Below are positions 11,954 to 20,982 of a stretch of 24,000 nucleotides of DNA, one piece after another (the first letter of the stretch is position 1; every line of letters begins with the position of its first letter). The stretch is taken from positions 12,974-36,973 of the forward strand of contig JAKFFI010000049.1 of the NCBI GenBank assembly GCA_036677085.1, written 5' to 3'. Source of the stretch: Porticoccaceae bacterium (GTDB lineage Bacteria > Pseudomonadota > Gammaproteobacteria > Pseudomonadales > Porticoccaceae). The position numbers were made by a program, and so were the translations under genes. The notes under the pieces were generated by a model. That model saw nothing but the letters and a program-made list of their open reading frames with translations. It searched no databases and was not told where the DNA came from.

Positions 11954-13033
11954 ATGTCCCTGATCCCCGAAAAACCGCTGCTTTTCTTCCCCCATGTGGC
12001 GGTGACCCTGGGGCTGCACGAAGCCATCCTGCTGCAAACCCTCAAGGAAATTGCCTGCCACCAACCGGCCGAAGAGCGCAACGGCTTCCGGTGGGTCGAG
12101 ATTGCGGGGGCCAGCCTGCTGGCGCTCCTGCCCTTCTGGAACGAGGCGGAGTTGCAGCATCTCACCGCCAAACTGCGCGAACAGGGAATCCTGCTGATCG
12201 GCGGCGCGCCCCTGTCCGCGACCGGGCGCTGGCGCTTCGCCTTCAACGAGCAGCGCGCCGGCTCCGCCAGTGCCGCCCCGCGCGCCACCAACGTGCAGCC
12301 GATTCGCGGCGACTGGCAACCGGAGCGCGACCTGCTGGCGCAACTCGCCCAGTACGGTATCCCCGGCGCGTTCGCCCTCGCCCAGGTGCCCGAATTCGTC
12401 ACCTACTGGAGCGAACGCGGCGAGCCACGCCACAGCTGGGGTGCGAAATTCATCAAGCAGGTACTGCGCTGCTGGCGCGAACAGGAAACCGTGCAGACAC
12501 GCCGCGATCAGGAACAGCCCATGACGGCGGACTGGCAGCCCGGCGTCGATGCCATGGAAATCCTGGTCCGTGCCGGCATCAACCGCAATTTCATCGAAGA
12601 CGCCGTGCCCGAGTTCGTCCTCTACTGGCGCGACCGCGGTACCTTGTCGAACACTTGGAATTCCCAATTCGTCCAGCATGTGCGGCGCCAGTGGGCGCGC
12701 TACACCACCACGCTGGCCAACGACTCCACGCCCCGACCCATGGTCCCCGACTGGCGGCCCGACCCCGCGGTCTACGACGTGCTCGCCATGGCAGGCATCG
12801 GGCAGAGCTTCGGCGCCAGCCTGGTTCCGGAATTCATCCTCTACTGGCAGGAAAGTGGTGCCGTCCTCAACACCTGGAACACCAAGTTCTTGCAGTACGT
12901 CAAACGGCAATGGGCCCAACGCAACACCACGGCGGAAGTGCGACATGCAACACGGCAAGGACCTGGCAGAACAGGCAGCACGCGATCTCGCGACCTCGTC
13001 GACGAACTCAGCGACCGCAGTTGGGCCGGCTGA
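11954..13033 (+). CDS. DnaT-like ssDNA-binding repeat protein (N-terminal winged-helix-like domain plus three DnaT-type repeats)
   Basis: 359-aa ORF. It has three internal repeats of about 55 aa at roughly 73-aa spacing (nt about 12314-12916), with the pattern W(Q/R)P....... L...GI...F....VPEF(V/I).YW...G....(S/T)W..KF...V.R.W. This resembles the DnaT C-terminal DNA-binding domain. The tail reads ...DLVDELSDRSWAG. Confidence 0.65.
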   Translation: MSLIPEKPLLFFPHVAVTLGLHEAILLQTLKEIACHQPAEERNGFRWVEIAGASLLALLPFWNEAELQHLTAKLREQGILLIGGAPLSATGRWRFAFNEQRAGSASAAPRATNVQPIRGDWQPERDLLAQLAQYGIPGAFALAQVPEFVTYWSERGEPRHSWGAKFIKQVLRCWREQETVQTRRDQEQPMTADWQPGVDAMEILVRAGINRNFIEDAVPEFVLYWRDRGTLSNTWNSQFVQHVRRQWARYTTTLANDSTPRPMVPDWRPDPAVYDVLAMAGIGQSFGASLVPEFILYWQESGAVLNTWNTKFLQYVKRQWAQRNTTAEVRHATRQGPGRTGSTRSRDLVDELSDRSWAG

Positions 13034-15445: not shown

Positions 15446-15546
15446 ACGCTTGCGACGAATAGGTGCGCACTTTCGCCAGAACAGCGCGCCTTCGCCAGGA
15501 CAAAGCGCTAATTCTTTCTTTTCACCAGCCTGTCCATGTGAAAAAA

Positions 15547-16191
15547 CTAGTCCGTCTTTGGTTTCGGTTTGAAGATATTGCTACGGCCAGAGCCCCAAAT
15601 AAACACGCCGCAAAACGCGAACAACAGCACATAGTAAGCAACGTATTTGGCGTAATTCCCGCCCCCAACGTAGAACGGAAACACCGAGCGGTAACTCAAC
15701 CCGGTAGCTTGGTGGCGAGCTTCGATAATACCCACATAGCCGCCATTTTCCACAAAAGGATATCGAACGCTTATCGTGCCTGCTCTATACGATTTTGGCT
15801 CTTCGTAGAAAACTGTGGCTTTTTCTACCGCTTCCGGCCCCCCCAAGTCCTCGTAAATCGCCTTGCGACCGATATTTTTGACGTCGCGGACAATCCGAAA
15901 ATCGATGTCCATAACGCGCAGTTCGTCACTAATGAAATCGATTACAAAAATCGCCTTGGTGGCAATTGGAATATCTTCACAGAACTCCTGCGAAGCACGT
16001 TCCTGCGGGAGATAGCCGGTAAAGTGCGCGGTGTATGGCCCGATCTTTATCAAGCACACGTCATCTTCCATGGAGACGCCACCGTGGCCTAACGCGGCTG
16101 CCGACGCGAAGAGCAAGCTCATCCCTACCCACAGGCCAAGCGCCGATTGCAAGCCGCCCGGATGTGTACGATTTTTTTTGGTTCCAATCAT
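15547..16191 (-). CDS. Uncharacterised fourth gene of the CuMMO operon: signal peptide, periplasmic domain of about 150 aa, and C-terminal TM anchor (PmoD/AmoD-like architecture; homology not established)
   Basis: ORF 15547-16227. ATG at 16191 is the likely start; a TTG at 16227 overlaps the pmoB stop as TTGA. It is on the same strand as pmoB, 32 nt downstream. n-region MIGTKKNRT, h-region ALGLWVGMSLLFASAAALG, then HGGVSMEDDVC... The C-terminal helix is YVAYYVLLFAFCGVFIWGSG with a basic tail RSNIFKPKPKTD. It shares the lower GC and A/T-rich third codon positions of pmoCAB. Confidence 0.7.
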   Translation of the reverse strand: MIGTKKNRTHPGGLQSALGLWVGMSLLFASAAALGHGGVSMEDDVCLIKIGPYTAHFTGYLPQERASQEFCEDIPIATKAIFVIDFISDELRVMDIDFRIVRDVKNIGRKAIYEDLGGPEAVEKATVFYEEPKSYRAGTISVRYPFVENGGYVGIIEARHQATGLSYRSVFPFYVGGGNYAKYVAYYVLLFAFCGVFIWGSGRSNIFKPKPKTD

Positions 16192-16223
16192 GAGATAACC
16201 AGCACTCGCATCGCAAACCACCG

Positions 16224-17498
16224 TCAAAAGAAGCTGGGGAGAATTGAGCCACCAAGTTCCTGATAGTAACGTTTTCCTTGATCGTCGTTGTAAAACAATA
16301 GTCCCGCAAAACGACTGTCAGGATCGTCGATCAGACCGGTCATGCGATATTGCTCCCAGAGCGTATCGGATGCCACGATGACAACATCCTTCGTCTCTCC
16401 GGGATTGACGGCATCAACCGAAACCGTGAGGCCATCGCGCGCCACCATTTCCTCGCCTTCGACAATTTTACCCTCGGCGACCTTTGGGTTTACAAAACGG
16501 ATGTTGGCCGTAATAAACTCATCAATCCGCAACGGTCGCTCGCCATTATTGGTCATCTTGGCATTGATGGTCAGGCTTCTACCCTCAAGCTTGTACGAAG
16601 CGTTCTCCACTTCGATCTTGAGATCGCCCGTCGGCACCTCTATGCCTTCTACGAGAACTTTACCCGTCTGCAGCGGAATGGTGAGCGGGTATTTCCATTC
16701 CGCCCACAGATATCCTGTGAGAATGATTGTTAATGTCAGCGTGAAAAATATAGCCGAAGCAACAAAGTCTCTTCTGGTCAGAAGTTCATTTGCCCGGTCG
16801 TTGCCAAGCGCCCGGATACGCATGAACCTTGGGATAAAAAGCTCCTTTCGGACCAACCAGAACAGCAACCATGCGACACCCATGGCAATCCAAACCAAGT
16901 GCCAACCGATCACACCACTCAACCCAAAGGTCTCGAGGTCAACAGTTTCGCCAGTAAGCAGTGTTGCATCGTTGACAAAGGGGGCATCCGTGTTCGCCTT
17001 GTCAATCTCAAGCCAGGTCCCTTTGCCGATAAGGGAACCTGCATCTAACACATTAATCAACGGATGAACATGATAGCGACCCGGGATTCGCGCGCGCAGG
17101 ACAACCTTGTATTCGTACACTTTGCCCAATGGGAACGCCGTGGACCGCATCATGGGCACGCCGTTTACTTCCGAGTGCACCCTGAGGAAGGTCGGGCCGG
17201 GGACACCGACATTGAGATAAGCGGTGTCGGCGATGCTGGGCAGGGTTTCCGGCCAAGACGTGGACGGGATGAACTTGCCCGTGAGGGTAACGGTATCGCC
17301 CACCTTGGCCTTGAGGGGAGTGACTTGAGTGTCAAACCAGTGCACCGTCCTCATCCGCATGCTCGCCAATTGAGCGCGCTCACCGTGAGCCAGAACTTCG
17401 CCGGAGAACAGCACCAGCGCCGACAATACGATTGAAGTCAGCCCCAATCTCGAACGGATTTTTTTTGCAGCCATCACAGTCTGTTTTTTAGCACCCAC
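16224..17498 (-). CDS. pmoB: Copper membrane monooxygenase subunit B (PmoB/AmoB/HmoB family)
   Basis: 424 aa, with GTG start at 17498 preceded by GAGGGGA. Signal peptide ends ...SGEVLA, followed by HGERAQLASMRMRTVHWFD (M. capsulatus: HGEKSQAAFMRMRTIHWYD). The GRYHVHP (HxH) motif is conserved, there are two central TM helices, and the C-terminus reads DPDSRFAGLLF....LPSFF. Confidence 0.93.
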   Translation of the reverse strand: MGAKKQTVMAAKKIRSRLGLTSIVLSALVLFSGEVLAHGERAQLASMRMRTVHWFDTQVTPLKAKVGDTVTLTGKFIPSTSWPETLPSIADTAYLNVGVPGPTFLRVHSEVNGVPMMRSTAFPLGKVYEYKVVLRARIPGRYHVHPLINVLDAGSLIGKGTWLEIDKANTDAPFVNDATLLTGETVDLETFGLSGVIGWHLVWIAMGVAWLLFWLVRKELFIPRFMRIRALGNDRANELLTRRDFVASAIFFTLTLTIILTGYLWAEWKYPLTIPLQTGKVLVEGIEVPTGDLKIEVENASYKLEGRSLTINAKMTNNGERPLRIDEFITANIRFVNPKVAEGKIVEGEEMVARDGLTVSVDAVNPGETKDVVIVASDTLWEQYRMTGLIDDPDSRFAGLLFYNDDQGKRYYQELGGSILPSFF

Positions 17499-17553
17499 GC
17501 CTTATTCCCCTCAGTTTCGATCAATTACTTATTAAAATGCAGGTTGATTTTTC

Positions 17554-18357
17554 TCACATGATACGCTTGGCGAAAGTCACCAGCTTATTCACATAAGAAC
17601 CCACCCACAGGAAGATGGCATAGACCACAATGCTGACAAAACCGGCAAACACGGCCGTCAACGGTACTACCGACCCGCCGAAAGTGCGCAGCGTGGAACT
17701 CTCGATAATTCTCAGGTATTCGGGGGTAGTGGTACGGATATATTCGTACCCCATCAAATCGGCCAGTGACAGCAGCGTGCCATTGAACTCCACCGCCGTC
17801 CTGTATGCCGCGATCAGGGGCCAATTCAATGGGTACACCAGGGCGCCGAACAAACCGGCACCTATGAAAGCGGAAACGACGAGACTGCGGGTCATTACCA
17901 GCGCACAATCGAGCAGAATGCCAACCCCGATGTAGGTCGCCGGAAAGACAAAAGTTAGCGGAAAGTAGGTAAAGTGATAGAAATTCAGGTAGTGGCTGCC
18001 CCAGGCCACCAGACACAACAGTGTAGTTAAGGCGGTCGCCATGATGGGTAGGCGTACCCGCTGCCATATGCCGTAGGTGAAGGCTCCTATAGGCATCAAC
18101 AGGGTAAGCGGCGTCACCAAAGGCCACCACCGACGATCTTTCCAATCTACCCAGTAATCCCAATCCCCAGCCGTCAAAGTGAATTGGATCTGGATTCCCA
18201 GGGTAAGAAAAGTAAACAACACCAAAATCAGGATTCCGTCGAGCCGTCGATATAGCTTCATGGCGGCCGGATTGTTAAGCGACTCCATGTCGAGAATCTG
18301 CGCTCTGGCTTCTTTTACTTCCTTGGCCCGCAACTCTTCTGATTGCACTTCGTTCAT
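17554..18357 (-). CDS. pmoA: Copper membrane monooxygenase subunit A (PmoA/AmoA family)
   Basis: 267 aa, with ATG at 18357 preceded by GAGGTG. Hallmark blocks are GDWDYWVDWKDRRWW, YFPLTFVFPA, NWPLIAA, EFNGTLLSLADLMGYEYIRTTTPEYLRIIE and TLRTFG. Confidence 0.93.
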   Translation of the reverse strand: MNEVQSEELRAKEVKEARAQILDMESLNNPAAMKLYRRLDGILILVLFTFLTLGIQIQFTLTAGDWDYWVDWKDRRWWPLVTPLTLLMPIGAFTYGIWQRVRLPIMATALTTLLCLVAWGSHYLNFYHFTYFPLTFVFPATYIGVGILLDCALVMTRSLVVSAFIGAGLFGALVYPLNWPLIAAYRTAVEFNGTLLSLADLMGYEYIRTTTPEYLRIIESSTLRTFGGSVVPLTAVFAGFVSIVVYAIFLWVGSYVNKLVTFAKRIM

Positions 18358-18418
18358 CTGGGCGACACCTCACGTTTTTGAAATGGCAATAGGCTGAGGG
18401 CGTGCAGCGGCTGTCCGC

Positions 18419-18454
18419 AGAAAAGAGTCCCCGCAAGTATGCTTGCGGGGACTC
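18419..18454 (-). terminator. Strong stem-loop plus short U-run in the pmoC-pmoA intergenic region (attenuator, partial terminator or mRNA-stability element)
   Basis: gagtccccgcaag (18425-18437) pairs with cttgcggggactc (18442-18454) as a 13-bp perfect stem with a 4-nt loop. On the minus strand it is followed by UUUUCU (plus-strand 18419-18424). It lies 62 nt after the pmoC stop and 68 nt before the pmoA ATG. Confidence 0.5.
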
Positions 18455-18515
18455 AGGGATTACCACTTTAGTACGCCGAGATCTCTCGACAAAAAGATGG
18501 TGCTTGATGGAGAGA

Positions 18516-19316
18516 TCAAACCACCTGGCGACTTTTGAGGGCAGTCACCTGTGCGATGGAGCGGCCCATGTAGGTGAAGAGCTGCACGACCAGCGGTACA
18601 AAGAAAAACAGCGACCAGCCCAGCAAGACAAAGCCCCAATGGATCGGCGCCGCAAACAGTTCCTCTGCATAGAAGAACGTATGGCCCCACTCATTGAACC
18701 CATAATTCGGCATGATCATGAGAATGCCGACAACCACTGCCAGGAACGGCAGCGACACTTTGTTCATGTAGGCCGGCAGGCGGGTGTGCGCCCAGATGAA
18801 CGTCGGAATCAGCATCGCGGTCAGGAAAGGCAGCGAGAAGTAGAAAATGATGATGTGGGTCGGGGTGAAATCGGTATCCCGGATCGTCACCTGATGCCAG
18901 GCGGCGTCCGACTCTACCGACGTAATCGCCACCGTCGCGGCCCACAACCCCATGACGGTAAACACGCCAAGCAGCTTCCAGTAGCGGCTTAACTCAAGTT
19001 CGGGGCCAATCTTGCTGGCGTCTGTCTCGCGCGTCATCCACATATAAACGGACACAGCAACGGTAAACAAGGTCAGTACGATGATTTCGCCGTACAGCAG
19101 TGGCATCCAATAGGTCTGGAATTCTGGGGCGTAATAGTCGGTTCCCGTCGAAAACGCCATCATGCCCATATAAAGACGCAACCCGGCGCCGACCGCCAGC
19201 ACCAATGCGCCAAAGCCCCAAGCAATCCGGTTTCGCCTGAAGTGTCCGGCAGTCTTGCTGCCAAAGCTCTCGCCGGAGCCGACAGCCAAGTCGTTCGTAG
19301 CGTGTGTCTGTGCCAT
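18516..19316 (-). CDS. pmoC: Copper membrane monooxygenase subunit C (PmoC/AmoC family)
   Basis: 266 aa, with ATG at 19316 preceded by AGGGG. Conserved blocks are SDAAWHQVTIRDTDFTPTHII and NYGFNEWGHTFFYAEELFAAPIHWGF (M. capsulatus: LDASWHQTIVRDTDFTPSHII and [26 protein letters not shown]). Confidence 0.93.
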   Translation of the reverse strand: MAQTHATNDLAVGSGESFGSKTAGHFRRNRIAWGFGALVLAVGAGLRLYMGMMAFSTGTDYYAPEFQTYWMPLLYGEIIVLTLFTVAVSVYMWMTRETDASKIGPELELSRYWKLLGVFTVMGLWAATVAITSVESDAAWHQVTIRDTDFTPTHIIIFYFSLPFLTAMLIPTFIWAHTRLPAYMNKVSLPFLAVVVGILMIMPNYGFNEWGHTFFYAEELFAAPIHWGFVLLGWSLFFFVPLVVQLFTYMGRSIAQVTALKSRQVV

Positions 19317-19504
19317 ATCAAGTACCCCTATATAATATAATAATGATGTCAGTCAGTGGTTCGGTTAACCGTATGCACCCATATCCGGCGGACGAGTCCA
19401 TTGCTCCGTGGACACCGCGACTACCTCGCTTAGGACTGCCTGTCGAAACGGTGCCATGAAGCACTGGACAACTCTTCATGATCGTACGTTATTTTGTTGG
19501 ATGA

Positions 19505-19533
19505 ACTATAGGCAAGCCATCCGATTCTGTTAC
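19505..19533 (-). promoter_or_regulatory. Candidate sigma70 promoter for the CuMMO operon
   Basis: Minus strand reads GTAACA (19533-19528), a 17-nt spacer, then TATAGT (19510-19505). This would give a leader of about 180 nt. It is an eyeball match only. Confidence 0.25.
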
Positions 19534-19908
19534 AGGACAATAGGTGACAGAGGTATTGCAGAAAGTGACATCGGCTTTCGACTCTGACTTGCCTTACTTG
19601 GCAGGCTTTAATTCATATCTAATTGAAAACTAACTACTTTTTTCCGAACAGTCAGTATTCACACCAATACCAGGCTACGGCCTTGGGCACATTTCATTGA
19701 GTTTTATTCGCCAGCGCCACCCACGCCAGGGAGCCCCGGGGTAATTCGGTTGGCGCACCCTTCCAGTGCACCTTTGCCCGCTCGCCGTCGGCATGCGAGA
19801 ATCCGCTGCTCAGCAAACTTACTATCGTGAAGCTGCCCGCGCGTCCTGACCGCCAAACCTAATTTGCGGCCGGACGGTTCGCTGCGGGGCCGTGGTCAGA
19901 GAGATAAC

Positions 19909-20982
19909 ATGACAGAACCACACGGCTCCATGCGCCCCCCCGACAAGCTGGCGGTCGCGGCACAACCACCCACGCCCGATAGCCGCTTCGTCAATGCCAG
20001 CTATGCCAACATGGTATTTCACACCCTGGGAGGAGGGCCCGAGGTACGCGCTATTTTCGAGCGCCATGGCCTGCCGAAGTCGCTGCTGGAAGACTCGAGT
20101 GCGCCGGTCCCGTTTGCGGATCTGGCGCAAGCCGTGTTTGCGGTCATGGCGGCTCTCGACCTGCCTACCGCGGGGCTATCGCTCGGCTCCAAGCTCCATG
20201 TCTCCAAACACGGCACCATCGGCATGGCGGTCATCTCCGCCGAAACGGTAGGGCAGGCGATCAAGGACATCGCCAGGTACTACCAGACGACCGTAACCTT
20301 CTGCGACATGGCCATGTTCTACGAGGGGGACCGAATTGTCCTGGAGCTCAAGGAAGCGTTCACCAGCCCTGAAATCAAGGTGATCGTCGTCGAGGCGCTG
20401 ATGCTGACGCTGCAAAACGCCCTCGAATTCGTCAGCGGCCAGCCACTCACCGACAGCCGGATTATCTTCGGGTACCCCCCACCGCCCTATGCGGACCAGT
20501 ACGATCTGTATTTTTCCGGCAAGACCGAGTTCGACGGCGATCGCCATCTGATGATTCTGCCGGCGTCCCTCCAGGCAGTACGCTGCGTCTCGGCCGATGC
20601 CCGCATCCACCGCATGGCGGAAGAGCAACTCCAGCACCAGATGCACGAGCTGCGCGCCAACAACATCACCGCCCACCATATCCTGGCGGAATTGCGCAAA
20701 AACCCTGCTGCCATGCCGACACTCAAGGACATGGCCAAGGCGTTCAGCCTTTCGTCGCGCACCCTGATCCGGCATCTGCAAGCGGAAGGCACCACCTACC
20801 GCGATCTGCGCGAAAGCATCCACAAGCAGATGGCGATTGACTCACTGCGTAATTCGGACCAATCCATCGACGCCATCGCGATGGAATTGGGCTACCAGGA
20901 CACCACCAGTTTTCGCCGCGCGTTCAAACGCTGGTGTGGCTGCTCGGCCTCCGAGTACCGGGAACGCAGCCGCCGCGAATGA
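19909..20982 (+). CDS. AraC/XylS-family transcriptional regulator (N-terminal AraC-binding-like domain, C-terminal double HTH)
   Basis: ORF 19864-20982, ATG at 19909 preferred. The C-terminus reads LKDMAKAFSLSSRTLIRHLQAEGTTYRDL....A...L.....SIDAIAMELGYQDTTSFRRAFKRWCGCSASEYR. It is divergent from the CuMMO operon across a spacer of about 590 bp. Confidence 0.85.
   Translation: MTEPHGSMRPPDKLAVAAQPPTPDSRFVNASYANMVFHTLGGGPEVRAIFERHGLPKSLLEDSSAPVPFADLAQAVFAVMAALDLPTAGLSLGSKLHVSKHGTIGMAVISAETVGQAIKDIARYYQTTVTFCDMAMFYEGDRIVLELKEAFTSPEIKVIVVEALMLTLQNALEFVSGQPLTDSRIIFGYPPPPYADQYDLYFSGKTEFDGDRHLMILPASLQAVRCVSADARIHRMAEEQLQHQMHELRANNITAHHILAELRKNPAAMPTLKDMAKAFSLSSRTLIRHLQAEGTTYRDLRESIHKQMAIDSLRNSDQSIDAIAMELGYQDTTSFRRAFKRWCGCSASEYRERSRRE

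Follow-up and report, generated by a model that had tools for sequence, protein, structure and literature searches.

Fisher et al. (2018; PMC6189053) have sorted the PmoD/AmoD proteins, which are found alongside the copper-dependent membrane monooxygenases (CuMMOs), into five classes according to their motifs: Cx7MxHxnC, Cx8MHxnC (AmoD), Cx8MxnC, Cx9HxnC and CxnC. The first of these holds the in-operon PmoD of the alpha-methanotrophs together with AmoE, and builds a CuA site to which two monomers contribute Cys41, Met49 and His51. Cys41 is a copper ligand and Cys65 is dispensable for this site; a Met49Ala variant abolished CuA, and the authors restrict CuA formation to the Cx7MxHxnC PmoDs. The representatives of the Cx8MxnC, Cx9HxnC and CxnC classes which were tested bound copper but gave no CuA spectra. 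The only solved PmoD (PDB entry 6CPD) is that of Methylocystis sp. Rockwell, Met49242_1452. According to the same paper, 98.5% of the PmoD sequences in the dataset came from CuMMO-encoding genomes, and disruption of pmoD in Methylosinus trichosporium OB3b led to impaired growth in a manner dependent on copper. Here we describe the fourth gene (open reading frame 4, ORF4) of a CuMMO operon located on a stretch of 24,000 nucleotides from a Porticoccaceae bacterium (assembly GCA_036677085.1, contig JAKFFI010000049.1, positions 12,974 to 36,973), which in its whole length is called the window below. ORF4 encodes a divergent member of the PmoD/AmoD family, a membrane-tethered periplasmic protein, and thus belongs to a known family rather than to a new kind of partner. 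We consider it probable (roughly 0.7) that the operon reads pmoCABD, that it belongs to the hydrocarbon-type CuMMO clade of Porticoccaceae-like Gammaproteobacteria, and that ORF4 is a PmoD of the Cx9HxnC subclass acting as a copper accessory.

ORF4 and the PmoD/AmoD family

ORF4 (15547..16191, minus strand; 214 amino acids plus stop) was assigned to the pmoD family through homologue searches, a profile match to 6CPD, its predicted fold and a profile-profile comparison. When a profile of the 119-sequence ORF4 alignment was run against the PDB it matched 6CPD with an E-value of 1.2e-18 over residues 40-172, almost all of the domain that was crystallised. An hhalign comparison with 23 canonical PmoDs gave a probability of 99.75% (E 2.9e-27) over 165 columns, the two families being collinear from the signal peptide to the membrane helix. 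The top PDB match of the AlphaFold2 (AF2) model in Foldseek was again 6cpd_A (E 1.7e-11), with a target-normalised template modelling score (TM-score) of 0.87 and a root-mean-square deviation of 2.5 Å. The invariant residues C46, H56 and C71 of ORF4 fall at the C1, H2 and C2 positions of PmoD, such that Cys41 and Cys65 of 6CPD correspond to C46 and C71. A preliminary description of this DNA, made from the sequence alone, had recognized the architecture of PmoD/AmoD but saw no clear similarity in sequence; the architectural likeness is borne out, the membrane helix included, and the 6CPD profile match, the hhalign probability and the TM-score of 0.87 overturn the second statement. ORF4 itself matched no Pfam or NCBIfam family at E ≤ 1. 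Since neither collection contains a PmoD model, the empty domain scans are explained and do not argue against membership in a known family; the canonical Methylocystis PmoDs, too, lack any Pfam domain and go by the name "hypothetical" in that database.

The predicted layout of ORF4, a signal peptide, a beta-rich soluble domain and a single C-terminal transmembrane helix, is that of PmoD/AmoD. Hydropathy peaks are found at residues 14-36 and 180-202, and AF2 places helices at residues 13-33 and 180-202. The predicted Sec signal peptide (residues 1-35; 16087..16191, minus strand) has a KKNR n-region and a hydrophobic core, with A-L-G preceding the cleavage site, and is supported by hydropathy and by the -3/-1 pattern of the family. 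It is followed by the predicted periplasmic cupredoxin-like domain (residues 36-179; 15655..16086, minus strand), modelled with predicted local distance difference test (pLDDT) values mostly of 80-96 (mean for the whole protein 82) and matching 6CPD both in Foldseek and by profile. The transmembrane helix (residues 180-202; 15586..15654, minus strand) is an AF2 helix with Kyte-Doolittle values above 1.6 and aligns with the membrane helix of PmoD. The predicted basic cytoplasmic tail, RSNIFKPKPKTD, with four Lys/Arg residues, occupies 15547..15585 (minus strand) together with the stop codon. Two cysteines, C46 and C71, lie in the soluble domain and a third, C194, in the membrane helix. The order of parts given in the preliminary description (signal peptide, periplasmic domain with two cysteines, one helix and a basic tail) is therefore in agreement with both hydropathy and the AF2 model.

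That ORF4 is a genuine gene under strong selection is evident from its relatives. At E ≤ 1e-3 the database contained 601 homologues, every one unnamed or "hypothetical", and an exhaustive profile search with the family found 656 clusters at 50% identity. The alignment of 119 sequences has 30 invariant columns, among them C46, H56-F-T-G-Y, E-F-C71-E-D-I-P, F-R and F-P-F-x-V-G; conservation is lowest in the membrane helix. Linkage to CuMMO operons in other genomes had been set as one test of the prediction. We scanned one genome per species, which yielded 80 loci, and in all 79 which could be evaluated the homologue comes straight after a co-oriented pmoB, the 80th beginning at a contig edge. 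The identity of the fourth protein correlates with that of PmoB (Spearman 0.80) and, among the 31 most distant operons, the ORF4 homologue has a median identity of 50% versus 44-46% for the catalytic subunits. Homology and conservation on this scale are far beyond chance. With PmoD conserved to at least the degree of the catalytic subunits, the case for a general CuMMO accessory, not one specific to methane or ammonia oxidation, is strengthened. In terms of annotation, ORF4 and some 600 relatives labelled "hypothetical protein" can be named PmoD, and the hydrocarbon-type CuMMO operons of Porticoccaceae-like bacteria, Macondimonas, Solimonas/Nevskiales and their relations prove to have the order pmoCABD.

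The closest well-described counterpart is Met49242_1452 (6CPD; PMC6189053), the gene for which also lies directly after pmoB. The two proteins have the same fold and the same order of signal peptide, domain and helix, and share Cys1, His2, Cys2 and the EFC(E/D)(E/D)IP and DFRI(I/V)RD blocks, but their identity is only about 24-27%. They differ in the motif (Cx9H in ORF4, Cx7MxH in Met49242_1452, so that no CuA is expected in ORF4), in the predicted mature N-terminus (His-Gly-Gly against Glu-Gly-Gly), in His160, which is near-invariant in the ORF4 subfamily and absent from Met49242_1452, and in the host enzyme, a hydrocarbon-type CuMMO for the former and particulate methane monooxygenase (pMMO) for the latter.

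Ligand motif and predicted N-terminal histidine

The metal-ligand motif of ORF4, C46-x9-H56-x14-C71 (15979..16056, minus strand), was located by alignment to 6CPD. The methionine ligand of the CuA class is missing: the position C1+8 is occupied by Thr54 in ORF4 and by K, R, T or S across the family, while the histidine at C1+10 (His56) is present. The Cx9H spacing and the threonine at the Met position therefore place ORF4 in the Cx9HxnC class. His160 (15712-15714, minus strand) is nearly invariant (≥ 90%) in the ORF4 subfamily and corresponds to a gap or Thr in canonical Methylocystis PmoD in the hhalign alignment; it may be an additional metal ligand peculiar to the clade.

Members of the same class are known from other settings. 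PmoD MettrDRAFT_0370 of M. trichosporium OB3b shares the Cx9HxnC motif, and bound copper without CuA spectra; the Cx9HxnC genes of methanotrophs are often situated near copC (PMC6189053), whereas ORF4 is an in-operon copy. In Supplementary Data 2 of Fisher et al., PmoD Ga0070002_104146 of Solimonas aquatica DSM 25927 is entered as Cx9HxnC with the neighbourhood "cabdcd" (PMC6189053). It has in common with ORF4 the motif class, the residue termed H1 (see below), a position after pmoCAB and a gammaproteobacterial host which is neither a methanotroph nor a nitrifier. The homologue in our Solimonas locus L071 is 47% identical to ORF4; there a copC gene and a copD-cytochrome c gene follow pmoD, while the operon in the window stops at pmoD. 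The in-operon PmoDs of such non-methanotroph, non-nitrifier CuMMOs are thus already catalogued by Fisher et al. but not discussed. AmoD (orf5) and AmoE (orf4), exemplified by NE0941/NE0942 of Nitrosomonas europaea and Noc_2500 of Nitrosococcus oceani, belong to the same family, follow amoB and possess H1. They differ from ORF4 in motif (Cx8MHxnC and Cx7MxHxnC, respectively, vs Cx9HxnC) and in that their partner enzyme oxidises ammonia.

The preliminary description had left a choice between cleavage at ASA|A and at ALG|H, the latter giving a mature protein that starts with histidine. In the family alignment conservation begins exactly at His36 (H-G-G-V-S-x-E-D-D-x-C). We tabulated the residue ten positions before Cys1 in the 232 homologues with a complete N-terminus, and it is His in 219, the remainder having Gly (8), Ala (4) or Ser (1). 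Of the 219 sequences with histidine, 216 have Ala, Gly, Ser or Thr at -1 and all have a small or aliphatic residue at -3; Leu, Phe, Trp and Tyr predominate at -2, and Gly invariably occupies position +2. This pattern marks a signal peptidase I site just ahead of the histidine, and the ASA|A site does not recur in an alignment of 30 sequences. The mature protein most likely begins with His36 (CAC codon at 16084..16086, minus strand), as judged from this conservation, and the ALG|H site is accordingly to be preferred.

This residue is the H1 of Fisher et al., whose metadata table has the columns "H1 / C1 / M / H2 / C2". Among the entries examined H1 is scored as present for most, AmoD and AmoE included (PMC6189053), and the residue had therefore already been noticed. 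In our alignments the same upstream His is found in Cx8MH (AmoD-like) representatives, and the residue aligned with it in canonical Methylocystis PmoD is Glu (A|EGGAG...). In a minority of homologues (P0259, P0269, P0299, P0300 and P0380-P0382) the predicted mature chain opens with Gly-Gly-Gly rather than His-Gly-Gly; a universal need for H1 can thus be discounted, and such members provide natural controls for any histidine-brace idea.

The near-universal predicted N-terminal histidine is a lead on the function of PmoD. The 6CPD construct starts at Gly38, skipping the first 11 predicted mature residues (PMC6189053), and in every published PmoD construct the vector has added Ser-Met to the N-terminus (PMC6189053, Methods). 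The native N-terminal amine of PmoD consequently lies outside the published chemistry, and a copper site of the brace type would have been missed. Our literature search found no text joining "PmoD" with "histidine brace", and only unrelated uses of "AmoD" with "N-terminal histidine"; the one match to "pmoCABD", a paper on Verrucomicrobia, did not discuss such a brace in PmoD either. We tentatively propose, with the odds still against it, that H1 would be the true N-terminus of most PmoD/AmoD proteins, ORF4 among them, and might by itself, or with His56, Cys46 or His160, make up a Cu(II) site of the histidine-brace type, in which case PmoD could be a membrane-tethered histidine-brace copper carrier serving the histidine-brace CuB site of PmoB. 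ORF4 resembles the established histidine-brace proteins (PmoB CuB, CopC, PCuAC/PmoF, YcnI and the AA10 lytic polysaccharide monooxygenases, LPMOs) in having a predicted N-terminal His on a periplasmic beta-sandwich. No sequence homology to them was found with Pfam, however, the structural likeness is weak and generic, and His36 is a putative copper ligand.

Role of ORF4 and competing explanations

We envisage that ORF4 would be exported by the Sec pathway and cut by signal peptidase I after Ala-Leu-Gly35, leaving on the periplasmic side a cupredoxin-like domain of about 144 residues, which its C-terminal helix would hold to the inner membrane beside the CuMMO. By homology, copper would be bound by the invariant residues at the N-terminal end of this domain, Cys46 and His56, possibly with Cys71, and possibly with the amine and imidazole of His36; binding has been demonstrated in vitro for other PmoDs only (PMC6189053). 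The most likely function would be that of an accessory to the CuMMO in copper acquisition, loading or copper-site maintenance, rather than CuA electron transfer.

The proposal of a supply or maintenance role is made because of the Methylosinus pmoD genetics cited above and because of the gene neighbourhoods. In 54 of the 80 loci the gene after the pmoD homologue encodes a membrane-anchored multicopper oxidase (Pfam-confirmed) of about 560 amino acids with a C-terminal hydrophobic segment (loci L008-L080, e.g. L011:10613-12319), and in seven, forming the Solimonas group, copC and a copD-cytochrome c fusion lie downstream (e.g. L071:10567-12921; Pfam-confirmed). These neighbours strengthen the copper-handling inference, and ORF4 is very probably a copper-handling accessory protein. 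Of the earlier idea of a new copper-handling partner the copper part is thus retained; the novelty is not, given the PmoD homology and the published Cx9HxnC class.

In eight further loci (L010, L012, L028, L031 and L033-L036; e.g. L010:11052-13154) a large protein of about 700-800 amino acids is encoded 100-450 nt beyond the pmoD gene on the downstream side. No Pfam family matches it, and its N-terminus looks membrane-embedded.

Several observations weigh against a copper accessory role for ORF4. The genes that come after pmoD in relatives, for a multicopper oxidase, a CopD-cytochrome c protein or a large membrane protein, were looked for in the window and not found; its operon is without the multicopper oxidase or copCD genes of most relatives, and no strong Shine-Dalgarno sequence precedes the ATG of ORF4. 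Residues 34-37 of the AF2 model have pLDDT values below 50, so that the model places His36 relative to Cys46 and His56 with low confidence. According to a 2026 review (PMC13058606), cryo-electron microscopy of pMMO and ammonia monooxygenase in native membranes has given no strong evidence of PmoD association.

The alternatives fare less well. A structural or assembly subunit, with the helix docking on PmoC or PmoA and the periplasmic domain stabilising PmoB without essential copper chemistry, would account for the strict 1:1 linkage and co-divergence with pmoB and for the presence of a membrane helix throughout the family. The residues under the strongest conservation, however, are Cys, His and acidic ones, of the kind expected of a metal site rather than an interface, the helix shows less conservation than any other part, and the native-membrane structures offer no strong evidence for an association of PmoD with the enzyme; we give this explanation a small but real chance. 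Slightly behind it comes the idea of an electron-transfer partner, in which ORF4 would dimerise around a mixed-valent CuA-like Cu2S2 centre as does Methylocystis PmoD and pass electrons to the CuMMO. The fold, the Cys1 and His2 ligands and the position within the operon are those of the CuA-forming class. Such a role is nevertheless unlikely, because the methionine of Cx7MxHxnC is missing (Thr54 in ORF4; K, R or T in the family) and because the Cx9HxnC representative had no CuA features and the Met49Ala variant abolished CuA (PMC6189053).

A periplasmic thiol-disulfide or Cu(II)-reducing protein using Cys46 and Cys71 as a redox pair is improbable. Both cysteines are invariant and their equivalents form an intramolecular disulfide in the 6CPD crystal (PMC6189053), but in PmoD the first is a copper ligand and the second dispensable for CuA, and neither a thioredoxin-like motif nor such a fold was found in ORF4. 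We attach hardly any credence to a new histidine-brace copper chaperone of the CopC/PCuAC/YcnI sort unrelated to PmoD. The predicted mature His with its invariant Gly would suit it, and AA10 LPMOs, which have an N-terminal histidine brace, appear in the second tier of fold matches (E 1.7e-3 to 4e-2; TM-score 0.3-0.41). The clear homology to PmoD refutes the "unrelated" part, and the CopC, PCuAC and YcnI comparison that the preliminary description had called for gave no Pfam match at E ≤ 1. Homology to LPMOs was considered and rejected, the TM-scores being 0.3-0.4, the identities 6-16% and the beta-sandwich likeness generic. Compared with all of these, an in-operon Cx9HxnC PmoD with a part in copper supply or maintenance is the explanation we prefer.

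The pmoCABD operon and its surroundings

All four genes of the operon are on the minus strand. The pmoC (18516..19316; PF04896, E 1.5e-62), pmoA (17554..18357; PF02461, E 1.8e-70) and pmoB (16224..17498; PF04744, E 2.5e-121; NF041640) genes have strong matches in both Pfam and NCBIfam, and PmoB, the CuB histidine-brace subunit, has the mature N-terminus HGE. The spacing from the TGA of pmoB to the ATG of ORF4 at 16191 is 32 nt; an alternative in-frame TTG at 16227 overlaps the pmoB stop codon as TTGA. These coordinates agree with those first reported for a fourth gene on the same strand, and the alignment shows that the homologues start at the position equivalent to the ATG. The stop codon of ORF4 is at 15547-15549. 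An antisense reading frame at 15463-16092 (plus strand) is without support.

The operon matches the Porticoccaceae hydrocarbon-type CuMMO clade of a 2022 preprint (10.1101/2022.11.07.515388), which does not mention pmoD. The PmoB of the window scores 466.7 against the NCBIfam equivalog "bacterial ammonia monooxygenase AmoB" (cut-off 336), with PmoA and PmoC remaining under their own cut-offs. In automatic annotation this hydrocarbon-type enzyme may for that reason be given the wrong label of an ammonia monooxygenase.

As had been stated from codon usage, ORF4 resembles pmoCAB in composition. Its G+C content is 0.51 and that at third codon positions (GC3) 0.59, the pmoCAB genes having a G+C content of 0.53-0.57 and the whole pmoCABD block (window positions ca. 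15500-19900) a GC3 of 0.59-0.75. The flanking radA, aceK, araC-type and short-chain dehydrogenase/reductase genes have values of 0.59-0.70 and 0.71-0.87, respectively. The low-G+C pmoCABD block is consistent with a horizontally acquired island.

A scan for promoters and terminators revealed no convincing terminator 3' of ORF4 and no internal promoter above shuffle expectation. The top terminator-like match of the region is a strong stem-loop in the pmoC-pmoA gap (18425-18454, minus strand), the stem having 13 bp, nine of them G-C, and the loop 4 nt; TTTTCT comes next. Within the operon it may act in attenuation, or else in the processing or stability of the mRNA. Upstream of pmoC a divergent gene for an AraC-family regulator is found at 19864-20982 (plus strand). 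On the other side aceK converges on pmoD, a synteny shared with locus L004, and the reading frames downstream of pmoD in L001-L004 have no match to the multicopper oxidase or copC/copD families. Lastly, at 11954-13033 (plus strand) the window encodes a protein with three tandem DnaT DNA-binding domains (PF17948, E 1.3e-71, three stretches), a repeat architecture which is unusual for a primosomal DnaT-like protein.

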